From a virus (taxonomy: Duplodnaviria > Caudoviricetes), in IMG/VR virus record IMGVR_UViG_3300032322_001005, positions 1 to 61,603 of that record: 61,603 bases of DNA; one strand, written 5' to 3'. This document shows, piece by piece, positions 12,064 through 56,809 of the stretch. The notes under the pieces are model-generated. The model did not search any database, was not told the DNA's origin, and worked only from the letters and a program-made list of their open reading frames with translations. A program made the position numbers and the translations under genes. Every line of letters begins with the position of its first letter. Positions within the stretch are counted from its first letter, which is position 1.

Positions 12064-12435
12064 TTATGTATAAGTTAGCGTTTCTCTGTCAGACCAAGCA
12101 CCTGTAGCACTCCCGTCTGAAACAACTTCTCCCGCAGAGTTTATTTCTGTTTTGTAAATTGTCCAGTCATTTGAATCTTCTGGATCGCTTTCTGGATAAT
12201 CTTCCCAAGCAAGCCGTCCGATATAAAGTTCCAATCCGTCTGAACTGGTGGCGGATAAAAACAAATAAAGCGAAGTATCGCGTGGTCTAGCCAGCCTAAA
12301 TACTTCGCCCGATTCGTCTTTGCTGTAGAGCCTGCGATCCGTTAGATTGATCGCAAGCTCCCCAGCGGTGAGGTCTTGCGCCTCGGGAACTCGTCCCGAG
12401 ACGCTTGACCGTTTTAATTTGATCGTTGTAGGCAC
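12064..12435 (-). CDS. fibre-associated protein (Mtd-N/hyaluronidase-like N-terminus)
   Basis: IKLKRS...LTAGELAINLTD..LY; C-terminal WSDRETLTYT. Confidence 0.65.
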   Translation of the reverse strand: MPTTIKLKRSSVSGRVPEAQDLTAGELAINLTDRRLYSKDESGEVFRLARPRDTSLYLFLSATSSDGLELYIGRLAWEDYPESDPEDSNDWTIYKTEINSAGEVVSDGSATGAWSDRETLTYT

Positions 12436-12452
12436 GATCCTTCTAACTTATA

Positions 12453-13454
12453 TTAGAAGGTTCCGCCGTCAACTTCTCCCTCAAGAGCGGAGATGCGGGA
12501 CTCGTGGTCCGCAACGTCGGTCTCAAGGCTGGTAGCACGTCCCTCAAGGGCGTCGATGTCGGACTCAGCCGTATCAACGCGACCGCTCAGGGTGCTAGCC
12601 GCAGACTCAATTGCAGTAATGTCGCTCTCAGCAGTATCAAGCCGACCGTCGAGTGACTCAACGTCACCTTCCAGATCGGTAGCACGGCCTTCCAGAGCGT
12701 CGATGTCACCTTCAGCAGTCGTAACGCGACCAGCAAGCGTGGTGGCGGCGGACTCGATAGCGGTGATGTCGGACTCGGCTGTGTCAACGCGACCAGCGAG
12801 GGTGGAGGCGGCTGTTTGGATGCTAACTACATCGCTTTCAATGTTTGTCAATCGACTGTCAGTTGAATCGTCCAATGAGCTTAAGCTGCTCTGAAGGGAT
12901 GACACATCACCTTCAAGGGTGGTGGCACGACCTTCAACAGCGGTGGCGCGGGACTCAAGCGAGTCGATGTCACCTTCAGCCGTGGTGACACGTCCGCTCA
13001 GGGTAGAAGCAGCACCTTCAATCGCTGTAATGTCTCCCTCAATCGCTGAAAGGCTGTTCGCCACAGTCGAGGCGAAGTTAGCATCATCGTTAAGAGCGGC
13101 AGCGAGTTCGTTCAGGGTGTTGAGCGCAGCGGGAGCAGCGTCGATAACGTTGCTGATCGCGGTGTCAACATATCCCTTGTTGGCGGCGTCGGTAGAAGCA
13201 ACAGGAGTTGCAACGTTCTCAACGACGAGTGAGCCAGCGTCAATACCACCCGAGAAGGTTTTCTTACCGGAGACGGTCTGAGCAGAGGATTTGTCAACGA
13301 ACGTGCCCTTACCAGCGATGGCCTCAATCGAGGTGCCATTGCCGATGTAGAGTGTTTCGTTTACGAAGTTATGTGCCAATTCACCAGCAAGCAAAGAGGC
13401 AGGTGCGCCCGAAGCTCCGGTTAGACGGCGTTTAATGCGGATATTAGTAGCCAT
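12453..13454 (-). CDS. coiled-coil fibre with Mtd-N-like N-terminus
   Basis: IRIKRR...LLAGELA; DAANKGYVD; APAALNTLNELAAALNDD; heptad repeats; ends DGGTF. Confidence 0.75.
   Translation of the reverse strand: MATNIRIKRRLTGASGAPASLLAGELAHNFVNETLYIGNGTSIEAIAGKGTFVDKSSAQTVSGKKTFSGGIDAGSLVVENVATPVASTDAANKGYVDTAISNVIDAAPAALNTLNELAAALNDDANFASTVANSLSAIEGDITAIEGAASTLSGRVTTAEGDIDSLESRATAVEGRATTLEGDVSSLQSSLSSLDDSTDSRLTNIESDVVSIQTAASTLAGRVDTAESDITAIESAATTLAGRVTTAEGDIDALEGRATDLEGDVESLDGRLDTAESDITAIESAASTLSGRVDTAESDIDALEGRATSLETDVADHESRISALEGEVDGGTF
12480..13050 (-). repeat. degenerate heptad coding repeats (TLxGRVxTAExDI)
   Basis: Repeated units visible at DNA and protein level. Confidence 0.7.
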
Positions 13455-47052: not shown

Positions 47053-47919
47053 TCAATACCTCTGTATCCAAGACTCCATCTCGTCTACGGTATACGACAA
47101 TCCCTGCTGAATCAAGTCCGCTCTCAGCATCGCTACGACTAGGTGTTTGTCTTTTGCTTTGTAAATGTGGTTGTTGAACGTGATCTGGTATCCGTTCTTG
47201 GGATACTCTGGACTCGCTGAAAAGTGTTTTCCTTTAAAGGTAAACGATACCTCTCCGTAGTTAACGTGCTTCTTGTTCTCTCTCGGGAAATAGCAGTCGT
47301 AGGCGTAAAGGCAGCACTCTTGGATCGCGTTGTGCTTTAATCCCTCGCAGATGGCGTTAGGCGAGCTTTGGTTCCCGATAAAGAGGTCTGATGCCTTGAT
47401 AGCCTGCGCGACGTCATACAGGTCGTTTGTGCGCAAATACTCGACCTTCCCGAACTGCTCGCAGAACGTGTGGTGTTCCTCCGGCAGTCCGATAAAGAGA
47501 ATATCGTCCTTAAACTTTTCGACTATCTTCCTCCATGGAAAGTATTCACCGTGCCACCTTGCCCCGCGTGAGATGACGATTCTGTTCTTTGCGTCCAGAC
47601 TTCCAAGTGGAACATCCAGCCAAGGCTGCGTCAAATCCGGCTTTACCATCATCCACCTCGCTACCCGACTGGCGATGTTTTCCCCGTAGCGCATCCCGCC
47701 GTTTCGATACGTCGAAATATCGAAGTTAATTTTTTCTCCTTCATGTTTGTGGACAGAGATGCCCGGAGATTCGATTAGCCTCCTGAACGTATCTATCCTA
47801 TGCAAGATTGGCTTCGTCCAAGGTCTGTCCGCGATAAACAACTTCTTCACCCCATACTCCTTCATCGAGGGAATGGAATAGATTATATCGCCGATACAGC
47901 CGGAATGGAATGCGTTCAC
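47053..47919 (-). CDS. GT9-like glycosyltransferase
   Basis: HSGCIGDIIYSIP; LFIGNQSSPNAI. Confidence 0.75.
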   Translation of the reverse strand: MNAFHSGCIGDIIYSIPSMKEYGVKKLFIADRPWTKPILHRIDTFRRLIESPGISVHKHEGEKINFDISTYRNGGMRYGENIASRVARWMMVKPDLTQPWLDVPLGSLDAKNRIVISRGARWHGEYFPWRKIVEKFKDDILFIGLPEEHHTFCEQFGKVEYLRTNDLYDVAQAIKASDLFIGNQSSPNAICEGLKHNAIQECCLYAYDCYFPRENKKHVNYGEVSFTFKGKHFSASPEYPKNGYQITFNNHIYKAKDKHLVVAMLRADLIQQGLSYTVDEMESWIQRY

Positions 47920-48012
47920 CTGTCTTATTGTTGAACAAGCGTGGAAGAAAAACAAGTCACTTTTCCTTTCAAAAGATTGTTGCGAAGTTCAAAGAAGTGG
48001 TGTTTACTTGCC

Positions 48013-48158
48013 TTGTCGTGGAAATAGAGAGCCACGACGATAAACATAGCAAGCAACACCGAACAATAAATGTAAGACCCTTCTTTTGGCGTATTCTGGA
48101 GATTCCGCAGTTGCTTGCTAAAAATCTCTAACTCTTCAGATGCGCCAAAAGAGGGGTC
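48013..48158 (+). ncRNA. C4-antisense-like structured leader (copy 2)
   Basis: Hairpin 48015-48038; long stem 48076-48158; pairs 48025-48030 vs 48125-48130 and 48047-48057 vs 48110-48120. Confidence 0.6.
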
Positions 48159-48170
48159 AATTTATTGTGT

Positions 48171-48617
48171 ATGAGTGTAAAAGTTCTGTCGGAGGTATTC
48201 GACAAAAGCCTTACGAGCGGCAATGCGAGGCTTGTGCTTCTCGCGTTGGCTGACTGTGCAAGCGAAGATGGGGCATGCTGGCCTTCGCTGCGGAAACTGA
48301 AAAAGAAATCAGGCGTATCTGAAGAAACAGTTCGCAAGTATCTCCACGCTTTTGAGGCAATCGGGCTTATCTCTTCTGAAGAGCGATATGATGTTGGAGG
48401 AAGGCGAACATCCAACGTCTATACAATCAACCTCGAAATGCTCGGAAGGGATTCGCCGGAGCATAAAACCTTGTATTCTGTCATACCGAAAAGCAAAAGG
48501 CGGGGGAGGGGTAGGTATGAACCAGTTCAGAGGGGGGTAGGTATGAACATGTTCATAGGGGGTAGGTATGAACCAGTTCATAGGGTCTATAATGAACCGT
48601 CTATAGAACCGTTATAA
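48171..48617 (+). CDS. HTH (HTH_36-like) replication-initiator-like protein, short
   Basis: MSVKV...ARLVLLALAD.A...G.CWPS...SGVSE.TV...GLI...SNVY. Confidence 0.8.
   Translation: MSVKVLSEVFDKSLTSGNARLVLLALADCASEDGACWPSLRKLKKKSGVSEETVRKYLHAFEAIGLISSEERYDVGGRRTSNVYTINLEMLGRDSPEHKTLYSVIPKSKRRGRGRYEPVQRGVGMNMFIGGRYEPVHRVYNEPSIEPL
48508..48580. repeat. iterons (3 x GGGGTAGGTATGAACnnGTTCA)
   Basis: Period 25-26 bp; each copy has a TGAAC-nn-GTTCA palindrome. Confidence 0.8.
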
Positions 48618-48659
48618 AGAACCGTCATGTTGCTTTTGTTGTTTTGAAAGGATAATCGC

Positions 48660-49358
48660 ATGGGATACACAAATAAGATCGGCAGGAGAGATCGCCGAAA
48701 GATAAAAAAGATCGGCAAATTCAAGATGACTCGCTGGGAGTATCGCAATGAGTATCTGAAGTCGCCGGAGTGGCAGGCACTACGCGAATCGTTTTTGAGG
48801 TCGCATAGCGGACTTTGCGAACGATGCGGAAAGCCCGGCTGCGATGTTCACCACACAGCATACAAGTTCAAAGAAACCGAGTGGGAACAGAAACAGCGAT
48901 TGATGCTTCTTTGCAGAAGCTGTCACAACACGGTTCACAAAGCGATAAACTGCAAACTCCTTTGGTTTCCGCACCACAAAGAGGATGTTATTGCGCTGAC
49001 AGATGATGCTCTAAAGAGGCGATTGAGTAGATCGAAAAAGAAAGAACTTGTTCCAATGATGCTGATTAGCAACATCGTTAAGAACGGAACTTCGCATGGT
49101 ATCTGCTTGGCGTGTGCCAAGCTAAAGATAACACAAAGCACGTTTTGCTCGATTCCAGCAAACCTAAAGGCGACTCAAGCACAGATTGATTACTTGCGAT
49201 GGGTGGAAAAGACAAGGCCGACCAAAGACGGCTGGAAATACAAGAACAACAAAAAACAAACCAAGAAGAGTGCGAAAGAAAAAGAAAAGCTACGCAAACT
49301 AAAGATAAGCCTCGGATTACGAAGTGCTAATGTTCAAGAAGACCTTTGCCCGTTTTGA
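48660..49358 (+). CDS. HNH endonuclease
   Basis: EYLKSPEW...CERC...DVHH..Y...LCRSCH. Confidence 0.8.
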   Translation: MGYTNKIGRRDRRKIKKIGKFKMTRWEYRNEYLKSPEWQALRESFLRSHSGLCERCGKPGCDVHHTAYKFKETEWEQKQRLMLLCRSCHNTVHKAINCKLLWFPHHKEDVIALTDDALKRRLSRSKKKELVPMMLISNIVKNGTSHGICLACAKLKITQSTFCSIPANLKATQAQIDYLRWVEKTRPTKDGWKYKNNKKQTKKSAKEKEKLRKLKISLGLRSANVQEDLCPF

Positions 49359-49417
49359 TGCAAAGCGTATGACGTTTGACAAAAATGTATACACTTTGGA
49401 AAATCTATTAACAAAAC

Positions 49418-53219: not shown

Positions 53220-54060
53220 ACACAGGTATATCAGGGATACCAAAAGCGAACCCTACACCGAACGGGTATAGAGTCGCAGAGAAGGGTAGGAATAGCAGTA
53301 GATCGGGTATACAGAAAAGCTTCGTAAAAGCCCGCTATTCGCGTTAGGGTAGCCAAACCGAGCAAAGTATCGGAAAGAAGAAGAAAACTCGCTGTAGAGG
53401 CTATAAACGCAAAAGAGAGGCTGGCTATACAGTGGGAGAGAGTCGTGTTTCGATAGGCAACAAATACACGAGTGGTGTCGCTATACAAGCAACGTAGTGA
53501 GTAACAAATAGTTAGGCGTATAGTATAGGCATAGATGTAGAGTTTGTGTAGAGATAATTTTTAATTTTTAATTTTGATTCGGGAATTTAAATTTTGATTT
53601 TCCCCTAGGTCGTTTTTTTACCCTGCGGCGCCGTGCCAAGTCCCCCTCCCCCTACCACGGGTGGCGTGTGGTGTGCTGCTGCCGCTCCGTCACTCCGCCC
53701 GCCGCTCTACCCTACCGCCCGCCCCGCTTGGCATGGTGCGGTGCCTCTCATGTGGTGCGGTGTGCGGTGCGGTGCCTGCCATGCTTGGCCTTGTGTGGTG
53801 CGCTGCCAGTCTCAACAATAGCGGCTGCCTTACCTTGTGCGATGGGCCGCGCTTGCCTAACCCGTTGATGCTGTGTCGCGCTACACTATAACATGATATA
53901 AACAGCAATAGTCGATAGCTGAACATTGCGCGAGGATGCCCGTAGAATGCGCGAAACGATTGGCAAGGGGTAGCATAGCGGGGCAAATTGCGATGCAATA
54001 GCGGGGCGATTAGCGCGAAGGAATAGGCAATGCGAGATGCTGGCCTGATATCACCGGAGC
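53220..54060. other. long non-coding region, candidate genome terminus/packaging region
   Basis: Purine-skewed segment, T-tracts at 53556-53619, C-run and a GT-rich low-complexity tract. Confidence 0.4.
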
Positions 54061-54079
54061 GAATCACCTTGCGCGAAGG

Positions 54080-54334
54080 TTGGCATGAAAGATGCTGCGC
54101 ATTTCCGCAAGGCTATGCAAAAGCGCAACTTGCAAAAGGCATGGCAAGAATTGCACGGAAAGCGGCAACCTTTGCCGGGTAAATCCTGCCTACCGGAAGA
54201 AATTGCCATTTCGGAAAGGTGTTGCGTTTGCGGAGCTTATGGCTTGGCATGGGAGATGCTGCGCAATTTCGTTGCGTAAGTGCTTGAAATTGCACCTTGC
54301 CATTGCCTTGGCAACACTTGGCATGGCGAATGCT
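54080..54334 (+). promoter_or_regulatory. three sigma54-type (-24/-12) promoter motifs TTGGCATG-N4-ATGCT
   Basis: 54080-54096, 54244-54260 and 54318-54334, all with GG-N10-GC spacing. Confidence 0.6.
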
Positions 54335-54386
54335 ATGTATTTTGCCAAGCGGGGGAACCCGTCAAACACCAAACCAAACCAAACCA

Positions 54387-54602
54387 ATGATCATCGAAAC
54401 CAAAGAACAGTTCGCAATATTCAGAATCCTTCAGCTTCGCGCCGCTCTCCGTTTGGAGTGTGCGGGAATGCGTCATTCAAGCGGAAGATCGGTTGCCAAG
54501 CTAATCAAGCAACAGTACGGATTTAAGGGGAGCAAGCAAGCCATACTGGAACAGCTTTGCGCACATATCGAAGCTATCAAGGCGGGGGAGGCTACCGCTT
54601 AA
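54387..54602 (+). CDS. early hypothetical protein
   Basis: MIIETKEQ...ALRLECAGM..S.GRS..K; (AAACC)n leader. Confidence 0.65.
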   Translation: MIIETKEQFAIFRILQLRAALRLECAGMRHSSGRSVAKLIKQQYGFKGSKQAILEQLCAHIEAIKAGEATA

Positions 54603-56296: not shown

Positions 56297-56809
56297 CTAA
56301 GACTCCTCCAGCAACAAAGGCTCTCCGTTCTTCGGGATGGAGAGCCTTTCGCTTACAAGCTGGATTGCGATGTTCGTCTTGTTCTCCTCGTCGTTCAACT
56401 CCCCGGCTGCACGCATATCAAGTTCAATCGCCTTGAGTTTATCGGAGACTCGCGGCCCTTGCAGGGTTCTCCGTCCTTCCCCGTCCACCGAAAGCGCGAC
56501 ATAGGGTTTCGTTTCGTCAATCTCGTTGGGCTTGGCGCGGACTAACTCGGCGAGCATGGAACGCTTCTCAAGAATCGACATGACATTGTTAGCCCAAGCG
56601 GACTCGCGGAGTGTCTGCATATACTGCTGGACTCTGGGGCGTTCGCTGATTTTCTTTCCACGGAGATAGGAATAGCGAGGGCAGCCAGAAGGTTTATAAC
56701 CGGACTCGTTGTAGGCTTTCGCATAAGACATTCCAGCAACTAAATTGCGGGCAAAGGCCGTCTCGTAAGGCGTAAGCTCGTTCTCAAATCCTTTTTTTCG
56801 GCGTGGCAT
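56297..56809 (-). CDS. terS: terminase small subunit
   Basis: LTPYETAFA...GMS..KAY..SGY HTH; P.VQQY; DKLKAIEL. Confidence 0.75.
   Translation of the reverse strand: MPRRKKGFENELTPYETAFARNLVAGMSYAKAYNESGYKPSGCPRYSYLRGKKISERPRVQQYMQTLRESAWANNVMSILEKRSMLAELVRAKPNEIDETKPYVALSVDGEGRRTLQGPRVSDKLKAIELDMRAAGELNDEENKTNIAIQLVSERLSIPKNGEPLLLEES

Follow-up and report, generated by a model that had tools for sequence, protein, structure and literature searches.

A structured leader RNA with long-range loop complementarity precedes the gene for a lambda-O-like replication initiator in a lake-phage cassette

In a Caudoviricetes record from IMG/VR, the gene for a lambda-O-like replication initiator is directly preceded by a strongly structured and conserved RNA leader (48015-48170, plus strand), in which the apical loop of a long hairpin is complementary to two sequences further upstream. 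It is plausible, although we rate it somewhat below an even chance, that the element is a cis-regulatory 5' leader of about 155 nt in the initiator mRNA, and that it sets the amount of initiator made through pairing of an upstream linker with the apical loop, which would delay closure of the hairpin. The record, IMGVR_UViG_3300032322_001005, has 61,603 bp and was analysed over its full length, hereafter called the window. It is classed as linear and about 90% complete, and Pfam matches are sparse among its genes. DNA nearly identical to it is found in lake-water metagenomes of many studies.

The leader lies in the gap between two divergent genes, and no function is assigned to the one on the minus strand. 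It comprises a 5' hairpin, an A/C-rich linker and a hairpin of 26+9 bp with a 31-nt apical loop (Table 1). A first-pass annotation of this stretch had described a hairpin, a linker, a long stem, complements of the hairpin loop and of the linker in the apical loop, and an ATG-TAA at the stem base; all of these are present, with the coordinates refined here. The ATG-TAA is a feature of the window, but it is absent from two of the related leader types described below (L003 and L126). There is no conserved open reading frame in the leader, since an in-frame TTG extension of the L003 gene meets a stop in the window.

Table 1. Positions of the leader, its parts and the surrounding features (window coordinates unless another contig is named)
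Feature	Position	Strand	Details
Intergenic gap with leader	between minus-strand gene 47053 to ~47913 and plus-strand ATG 48171		~255 nt, between divergent genes
Swappable replication cassette	47983..49365	+	promoter, leader, initiator, iterons, HNH gene
Putative sigma-70-type promoter	47980..48008	+	TTGCGA (47980-85), 17-nt spacer, TTTACT (48003-08)
5' hairpin	48015..48038	+	7-bp stem: GTCGTGG (48015-48021), 10-nt loop AAATAGAGAG (48022-48031), CCACGAC (48032-48038)
5' hairpin loop as RNA	48022-48031	+	AAAUAGAGAG
Linker, 5' strand of long-range helix	48047..48057	+	TAGCAAGCAAC; perfect 11-nt complement of 48110-48120
Outer A-U helix	48063-71 with 48160-68	+	9 bp, ACAATAAAT with ATTTATTGT; extends long stem; 3' strand U-rich
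ATGTAA	48070-48075	+
Long stem	48076-48102 with 48133-48158	+	3' arm contains AGAGGGG (48150-56)
Apical loop	48103..48132	+	GTTGCTTGCTA (48110-48120; RNA GUUGCUUGCUA) and TCTCTA/UCUCUA (48125-48130)
Lambda-O-like replication initiator	48171..48617	+	HTH_36 N-terminal domain ~48171-48500; frame continues through iterons
Iterons	48508-48585		three, 26-27 bp, each with palindrome TGAAC..GTTCA
GAACCGT repeats	48593, 48605, 48618 (within 48593-48624)		three, 12-13 nt apart, just past iterons
HNH endonuclease gene, cassette end	48660..49358	+	PHROG HNH families E 1.3e-11; Pfam HNH just under cut-off
Sister module	L146-L168, e.g. L150:1313-1400	-	locus equivalent to window 47983 onward

As many as 21 of the 31 nucleotides of the apical loop complement the 5' domain, 11 nt matching the linker and 6-7 nt the loop of the 5' hairpin. 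These partners are located upstream (48025-31 and 48047-57), and none is found beside the start codon. The linker sits in an A/C-rich stretch (48039-48062) that is unpaired in the predicted fold, 109-132 nt before the AUG; in the same fold the start region is held within the long hairpin, which extends from -108 to -3 as counted from the AUG (48063-48168). The sole Shine-Dalgarno-like run, AGAGGGG, is also inside this hairpin, 14 nt from the AUG, a distance that is long for Shine-Dalgarno spacing. At its base the long stem (GACCC/GGGGUC) is followed by AAUUUAUUGUGU in the window and by UUAUUUAUUGUU in L003, the U tract being better in the latter. The stem resembles a terminator and may end transcription; its loop places it outside the reach of the terminator scan tool, which takes loops of 3-8 nt only.

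The folding strength of the leader is exceptional for this genome. The plus strand folds with -63.4 kcal/mol (z -7.0), and none of 200 shuffled sequences does as well. Among 120-nt windows covering both strands of the whole record, 48061-48180 (plus strand) has the most extreme GC-corrected energy, at -5.05 sd. The record holds 12 perfect inverted repeats of at least 10 nt within 220 nt, which is approximately the number expected by chance, and two of them interleave at the leader. Two scans for interleaved complementarity, one restricted to perfect pairs (22 interleaved pairs in total) and a second allowing G.U, both rank the leader first.

The first-pass annotation had named frequent dual complementarity in shuffled controls as a result that would speak against the element. 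Here, the two pairings behave differently. When the apical loop is shuffled, a complement of at least 11 nt to the 5' domain arises in only 8 of 20000 trials, but a 6-nt match to the 5' hairpin loop arises in 1271 of 20000. Thus, the linker complement is rare by chance, while the hairpin-loop match taken alone is not significant. A further complementarity, between the apical loop and the coding region (48103-11 with 48287-95), is missing in L003 and was dismissed as chance.

The same annotation had regarded the leader as the second of two copies with a common architecture, and had read the differences between them as internal covariation. No second copy is found. Run over the record with filters off, a covariance model of the leader (R1) matches only the leader, its own reverse strand and a 10-bit site with E 3.6, and three architecture scans of the window (perfect interleaved repeats, interleaved repeats with G.U allowed, and pairs of hairpins with complementary loops) returned nothing comparable. 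The best other interleaved site, at 54141-54350 (8+8 nt), was rejected, its fold being no better than that of shuffled sequences (z -1.4). Similarly, a tblastn search detected no paralogue of the initiator elsewhere in the window. With no second copy in the window, internal covariation is not supported, and the covariation described below is that between genomes.

Other parts of the window carry structures or repeats of their own. Between two structural genes of the minus strand, 12230-12480 (minus strand) is predicted to fold very strongly, into five or six hairpins (-120 kcal/mol, z -11), and none of 200 shuffled sequences folds as well. It overlaps an open reading frame of 123 aa that has no family match. 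An ORF-poor stretch of about 800 nt (53500-54390), with a G+C content locally up to 73%, contains many short repeated motifs, among them TTGGCATG..GATGCTGCGCA, which occurs twice, and repeats of GGTGCGGTGCC. It folds no better than shuffled sequences (z -1.4), and may be an array of protein-binding sites. At 56316-56349, a perfect 11-bp hairpin (AAAGGCTCTCC...) between convergent genes, embedded in a larger predicted structure, is probably a bidirectional terminator.

The leader is carried by five IMG/VR contigs and four metagenome contigs, as identified in protein-anchored and DNA-anchored scans. These collapse to four distinct sequences, namely the window type, the L003 type, the L005 type and L126, a metagenome contig that is a natural chimera of an L003-like 5' domain and a 3' domain identical to that of the window. 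The first-pass annotation proposed a search for further instances ahead of initiator genes, and R1 does match such instances, with one copy per relative genome. No leader appears in 19 loci that share the neighbouring gene, beyond a weak match in L147 (18.8 bits, E 0.073), which falls on the L147 version of the sister module described below. Of 119 matches listed for a 15-nt pattern, only the known contigs had the 3' arm, and patterns of 19, 21 and 33 positions recovered the same 4-5 contigs and no further ones. There were no leaders in 185,579 species genomes of bacteria and archaea, and no DNA match in a phage collection. Protein-anchored scans reached two more distant contigs (L130 and L136, 40-43% identity) that lack the leader, and otherwise only the same lineages. 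Rfam 15 gives no match across the whole window at gathering score, nor for 47850-48700 at E up to 10. The leader is real and conserved, but so far confined to a small clade.

Covariation was counted over the structure including two pseudoknot helices, in a set of four variants that amounts effectively to two or three lineages. Pairing is retained in 92.7% of 245 paired cells, as opposed to 42-48% when the partners are shifted by 1-3 columns. Changes on both sides are seen in five pairs, three of them in the 5' hairpin and two in the linker:loop helix; this number is reached in 1 of 500 shuffles. Across the variants, the stem of the 5' hairpin reads GTCGTGG/CCACGAC, TCGAGG/CCTTGA or CCAAGG/CCTTGG, and the linker:loop helix reads TAGCAAGCAAC/GTTGCTTGCTA or AAGCAAACAAC/GTTGTTTGCTT. 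The claim that pairings are kept with changed sequence is thus borne out between related phages for the 5' hairpin and the linker:loop helix, but not for TAGAGA:TCTCTA, which is identical in all variants of the leader. The chimera L126 has an A.C mismatch inside the 11-bp linker:loop helix, so a perfect helix is not essential; a lake run contains the 5' domain of this contig once more, as a loose end.

The long stem follows a different pattern. RNAalifold returns it together with the 5' hairpin and the outer helix, and 22 of its 26 pairs are invariant, with no compensatory double changes. The 26 nt of the 5' arm beginning at 48076 are identical in all four variants, while the 3' arm and the surroundings vary. 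This invariance could have its cause in a protein site or in recent recombination rather than in pairing. In the comparison of the window with L003, the stem arms are 84-90% identical (90% over 48063-48102), the 5' domain 68% and the apical loop 61%, as against 67% for the coding region and 44% for its third codon positions. Despite its low identity, the apical loop has kept both complementary blocks. In lake contigs from three runs there are no variants in 48013-48170, one at 48012 and 11 variant sites in 48171-48500, although the strains are close and the comparison has low power. The lake runs also include a more divergent leader variant that agrees with the window only as far as 48101.

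The evidence favours an RNA read from the plus strand. Two U.G pairs of the long stem are invariant, and four other pairs alternate between G-C or A-U and G.U. In the 5' hairpin, one G.U pair fits the plus strand only. In all four variants the plus strand folds better than the minus strand, by 5.7-10.5 kcal/mol; in the window the minus strand reaches -58.1 kcal/mol (z -5.6). Because the U.G wobbles fit the plus strand only, the element is an RNA, and in this respect, as in the placing of the element directly before a replication-initiator gene, the first-pass annotation was correct. The putative promoter in the window matches the consensus at 8 of 12 positions, under the 9-of-12 call threshold of the scan tool. 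In L003 and L126, promoter-like sites with 10 of 12 matches stop 7-10 nt ahead of the hairpin, and the -10 hexamers align. Given these 10/12 sites and the aligned 8/12 site of the window, all preceding the hairpin, we infer a plus-strand transcript that would start at the foot of the 5' hairpin, at about 48015. The promoter region of L126 resembles that of L147, a phage with an alternative cassette. A consensus scan found no minus-strand promoter-like site in the window, L003 or L126 regions.

The initiator matches Pfam HTH_36 (E 8.6e-12) and PHROG families for replication initiation or O-like proteins (E 1e-19 to 1e-20), the latter over the first ~100 profile positions only, and is about 37% identical to lambdoid O proteins. 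An O-type C-terminal domain is absent according to the PHROG profiles. The reading frame in the window runs on through the iterons, but the L003 homologue stops inside them, which suggests that the protein is essentially the N-terminal DNA-binding domain and that the repeats are likely the origin. L003 has the same iteron layout and the same GAACCGT repeats, which may represent a second class of origin repeats; iterons and GAACCGT repeats together (48508..48624) form the probable origin.

Promoter, leader, initiator, origin repeats and HNH gene appear to move as a unit. The closest backbone is that of L146, which shows 100% identity to the window as far as 47982 and 94.7% from 49366 onward; between these points it has about 600 nt of unrelated DNA. 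Lake contigs also break at 47982. Accordingly, 47983-49365 is regarded as a swappable cassette. A second junction, at ~48074 and just before the 5' arm, is seen in L126 and in lake contigs. The neighbouring gene is common to 23 viral contigs, among which the initiator is found in L003-type contigs only. Downstream of the HNH gene are genes for a dCMP deaminase and a DnaB helicase. The slot after the iterons holds the HNH gene in the window and a MUG113/T5orf172 (GIY-YIG-related) gene in L003 (L003:3488-3817); homing-type genes may drive the exchange of cassettes.

Phages with the alternative cassette (L146-L168) have a sister module at the equivalent locus. This module of ~95 nt, directly after the early promoter, consists of a 5' hairpin, a linker and a canonical intrinsic terminator, and is followed by 320-690 nt without open reading frames of at least 60 aa and then by the next gene, mostly that for dCMP deaminase. 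Among 18 distinct sequences, 17 have a terminator loop of 6-7 nt that is perfectly complementary over its entire length to the loop of the 5' hairpin. Twelve different loop pairs occur, and among 290 non-cognate loop combinations none reaches 7 nt and four reach 6 nt. The 5' arm of the terminator is identical in 15 of the 18. L148 and L149 differ by a single compensated loop change (ATCACAG/CTGTGAT and ATCACGG/CCGTGAT). The exception, L158, has two loops of the same sense that are not complementary, and its lineage also carries the present leader downstream; in its siblings L153 and L155 the 5' hairpin has been lost. A remnant of the module that has likewise lost its 5' hairpin, with a second promoter (9/12) and a terminator, lies upstream of the leader in the L003 lineage (L003:2710-2800). 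Rfam has no match to the sister module, and there is no proper copy of its terminator stem in the window.

Similar to the leader, the sister module follows the early promoter at the same locus and pairs a 5' hairpin loop with the loop of a downstream terminator-like hairpin. It differs in having no linker helix, a canonical terminator and no initiator gene after it, and in its hypervariable loops, whereas the hairpin-loop pairing of the present leader is invariant. By analogy, the module lends indirect support to this invariant pairing and to the idea of cassette-specific complementary RNAs. The ORF-free stretch behind it (L146:800-1294, minus strand, with equivalents in L147-L168) replaces the initiator, iterons and HNH gene. 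It has conserved blocks and several hairpins with GNRA-like tetraloops, a fold z of only -1.8 and no Rfam match at E up to 5, and could be another kind of origin or a large non-coding RNA.

How might the leader act? In the reading that we tentatively prefer, transcription would begin at about 48015, at the foot of the 5' hairpin. The apical loop would serve over nearly its whole length as a landing pad for the 5' domain. Because the loop is made before the 3' arm, the linker:loop helix would form first on the nascent chain, and by enclosing the 5' arm it would hinder the winding of the 26-bp stem. This would give each new transcript a brief window for read-through and translation, after which the RNA would settle in a closed, silent form. 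In the finished RNA the hairpin 48063-48168 would bury the start region and AGAGGGG, block ribosome entry and possibly terminate transcription; it can hide the start region and may terminate because it covers -108 to -3 and ends in a U-rich tract. The order of the predicted folds agrees with this sequence of events. In prefix folding, the linker:loop helix is part of the minimum free energy fold for transcripts ending at 48126-48139 (-30.4 kcal/mol), and is displaced only after the 3' arm exists. The ViennaRNA folds are pseudoknot-free and never contain the linker:loop helix and the long stem together; that the helix would coexist with the stem, delay it or compete with it is a matter of reasoning rather than computation. 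The assignment of on and off to the two conformations is likewise inferred, as would be any activity in trans.

A less likely reading, to which we give a modest chance, is that the leader is a trans-acting specificity RNA. Terminated or processed leaders would present their loop or 5' domain to nascent leaders of their own or of a co-infecting phage, so that initiator expression would be set by gene dosage and replication "incompatibility" groups would be defined. Each pairing has its two partners on a single transcript, and from lineage to lineage the complementary blocks change in concert. The 12 perfect loop pairs of the sister module, in close relatives that mostly share an identical terminator 5' arm, are better explained by selection for separate specificities than by selection for folding alone. 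The first-pass annotation had suggested orthogonal, cassette-specific switches, but orthogonality is only partial: against cognate energies of -24.7 and -25.5 kcal/mol, the L003 5' domain with the window loop is clearly weaker (-15.9 compared with -25.5 kcal/mol), but the reverse combination reaches nearly cognate strength (-22.8 kcal/mol). Also against a role in trans, the hairpin-loop pairing is the same in all leader variants, and TAGCAAGCAAC at up to two mismatches has 21 matches where 17.9 are expected, none of them near 48171. Nor is there an Rfam match, and Rfam presumably includes a C4 family. It is unlikely, in our estimate, that the leader chiefly binds a protein or ligand. The 5' arm or the fold would then be recognised by the initiator (autoregulation), by a small molecule or by a host protein, for instance ribosomal protein S1 acting on a standby site. 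Such binding would explain why the 5' arm is identical in four of four variants, beyond the needs of pairing, and it would suit the unpaired A/C-rich stretch, which lies beside a 5' structure and 109-132 nt upstream of a sequestered start in a tisB-like geometry. However, that conservation may reflect recombination, given the breaks at ~48074, the leader contains no iteron-like sequence, and neither a riboswitch nor any other known family gives a match at E up to 10.

About equally unlikely is a static element, in which the 5' hairpin would stabilise the transcript and the long stem would be an RNase III site whose cleavage frees or destroys the start region, the loop complementarity merely aiding the fold. 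A duplex of 26+9 bp suffices for RNase III, and the near-perfect one found here is long enough; the 5' hairpin stands at the inferred transcript start, and the stem is strongly conserved. What this leaves unexplained is the complementarity of 21 of 31 loop nucleotides and the covariation of the linker:loop helix. A role at the level of DNA, as an origin accessory site or cruciform, as a recombination boundary between modules or as a target of a homing endonuclease, seems very improbable. The iterons are 340 bp away, junctions occur at 47982 and ~48074, and there are endonuclease genes in the cassette. Such a role is disfavoured by the wobble pairs, because in a cruciform, or on the opposite strand, the six G.U positions would become A.C mismatches. 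It is also at odds with the better folding of the plus strand in all four variants, and with the location of the compensatory changes, some in the hairpin stem and the others in a helix that joins regions left single-stranded by the RNA model.

Beyond the individual element, there is a modest chance that leader and sister module represent a single, undescribed class of RNA regulators that are sense-encoded and specificity-coded. In this class a hairpin loop close to the promoter, alone or together with a linker, would recognise the loop of a terminator-like hairpin further downstream, in cis as well as from one genome to another; the complementary address would diversify, and each cassette would answer only its own RNA. 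If true, phages would possess an equivalent of the incompatibility determinants of plasmids, located on cassettes that swap between near-identical phages. These phages offer a natural experiment, since near-identical lake-phage backbones have, at this one locus, either the protein-based or the ORF-free cassette, and each of the two opens with its own complementary RNA loops. Should pairing set specificity, they would reveal how control of replication stays private to each of several co-infecting phages, and would provide a compact set of natural orthogonal RNA-RNA pairs.

Leader RNAs that gate the synthesis of a replication initiator are a classic plasmid theme. The repZ/repA leader is a pseudoknot switch that works with the antisense RNAI, and the papers of Asano & Mizobuchi from 1998 reportedly deal with the pseudoknot of a plasmid rep leader. 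We know of no such leader for phage initiators of the lambda-O type, and literature searches returned no description of one for a phage O-like initiator. As in the plasmid leaders, a structured leader precedes the initiator gene, the start is sequestered, the origin lies downstream of the initiator gene and the long-range pairing of a hairpin loop is a candidate switch. Leaders of this kind belong to I-complex, IncB and IncL/M plasmids, whose replicon components are set out in PMC10286972. Unlike the plasmid rep leaders, the present one has no conserved leader peptide, the ATG-TAA being missing from L003 and L126, and no antisense promoter in a consensus scan. The loop pairs with an upstream linker, whereas in the plasmids it pairs with a sequence adjacent to the ribosome-binding site. 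In addition, this is a phage element before a lambda-O-like protein, with no sequence or Rfam similarity to those leaders.

Another parallel is the tisB +42 mRNA, in which, according to PMC7708055, a standby site is accompanied by a 5' pseudoknot. A single-stranded region ~100 nt before a sequestered start, together with a 5' structure, is also the geometry predicted for the leader. The gene there encodes a type I toxin and not an initiator, and the single-stranded region of the leader differs in having a complement in cis, in the apical loop.

The closest phage systems are the CI RNA of P4 and the c4 RNA of P1 and P7, which are sense-encoded regulators with complementary elements on the same transcript; in P4 the genes under CI RNA control are replication genes. 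The leader shares with them short complementary blocks on one strand and one early transcript, which co-change between related phages. It differs from P4 CI and P1 c4 in lacking a second target copy at a downstream ribosome-binding site and an Rfam match. Finally, the start of the maturation gene of MS2 is accessible only while the RNA is nascent, before a long-distance pairing shuts it. The predicted folding order of the leader resembles this delayed folding. MS2 is an RNA phage genome, whereas the leader lies behind a DNA promoter, and the delaying element proposed here is the helix between apical loop and linker.
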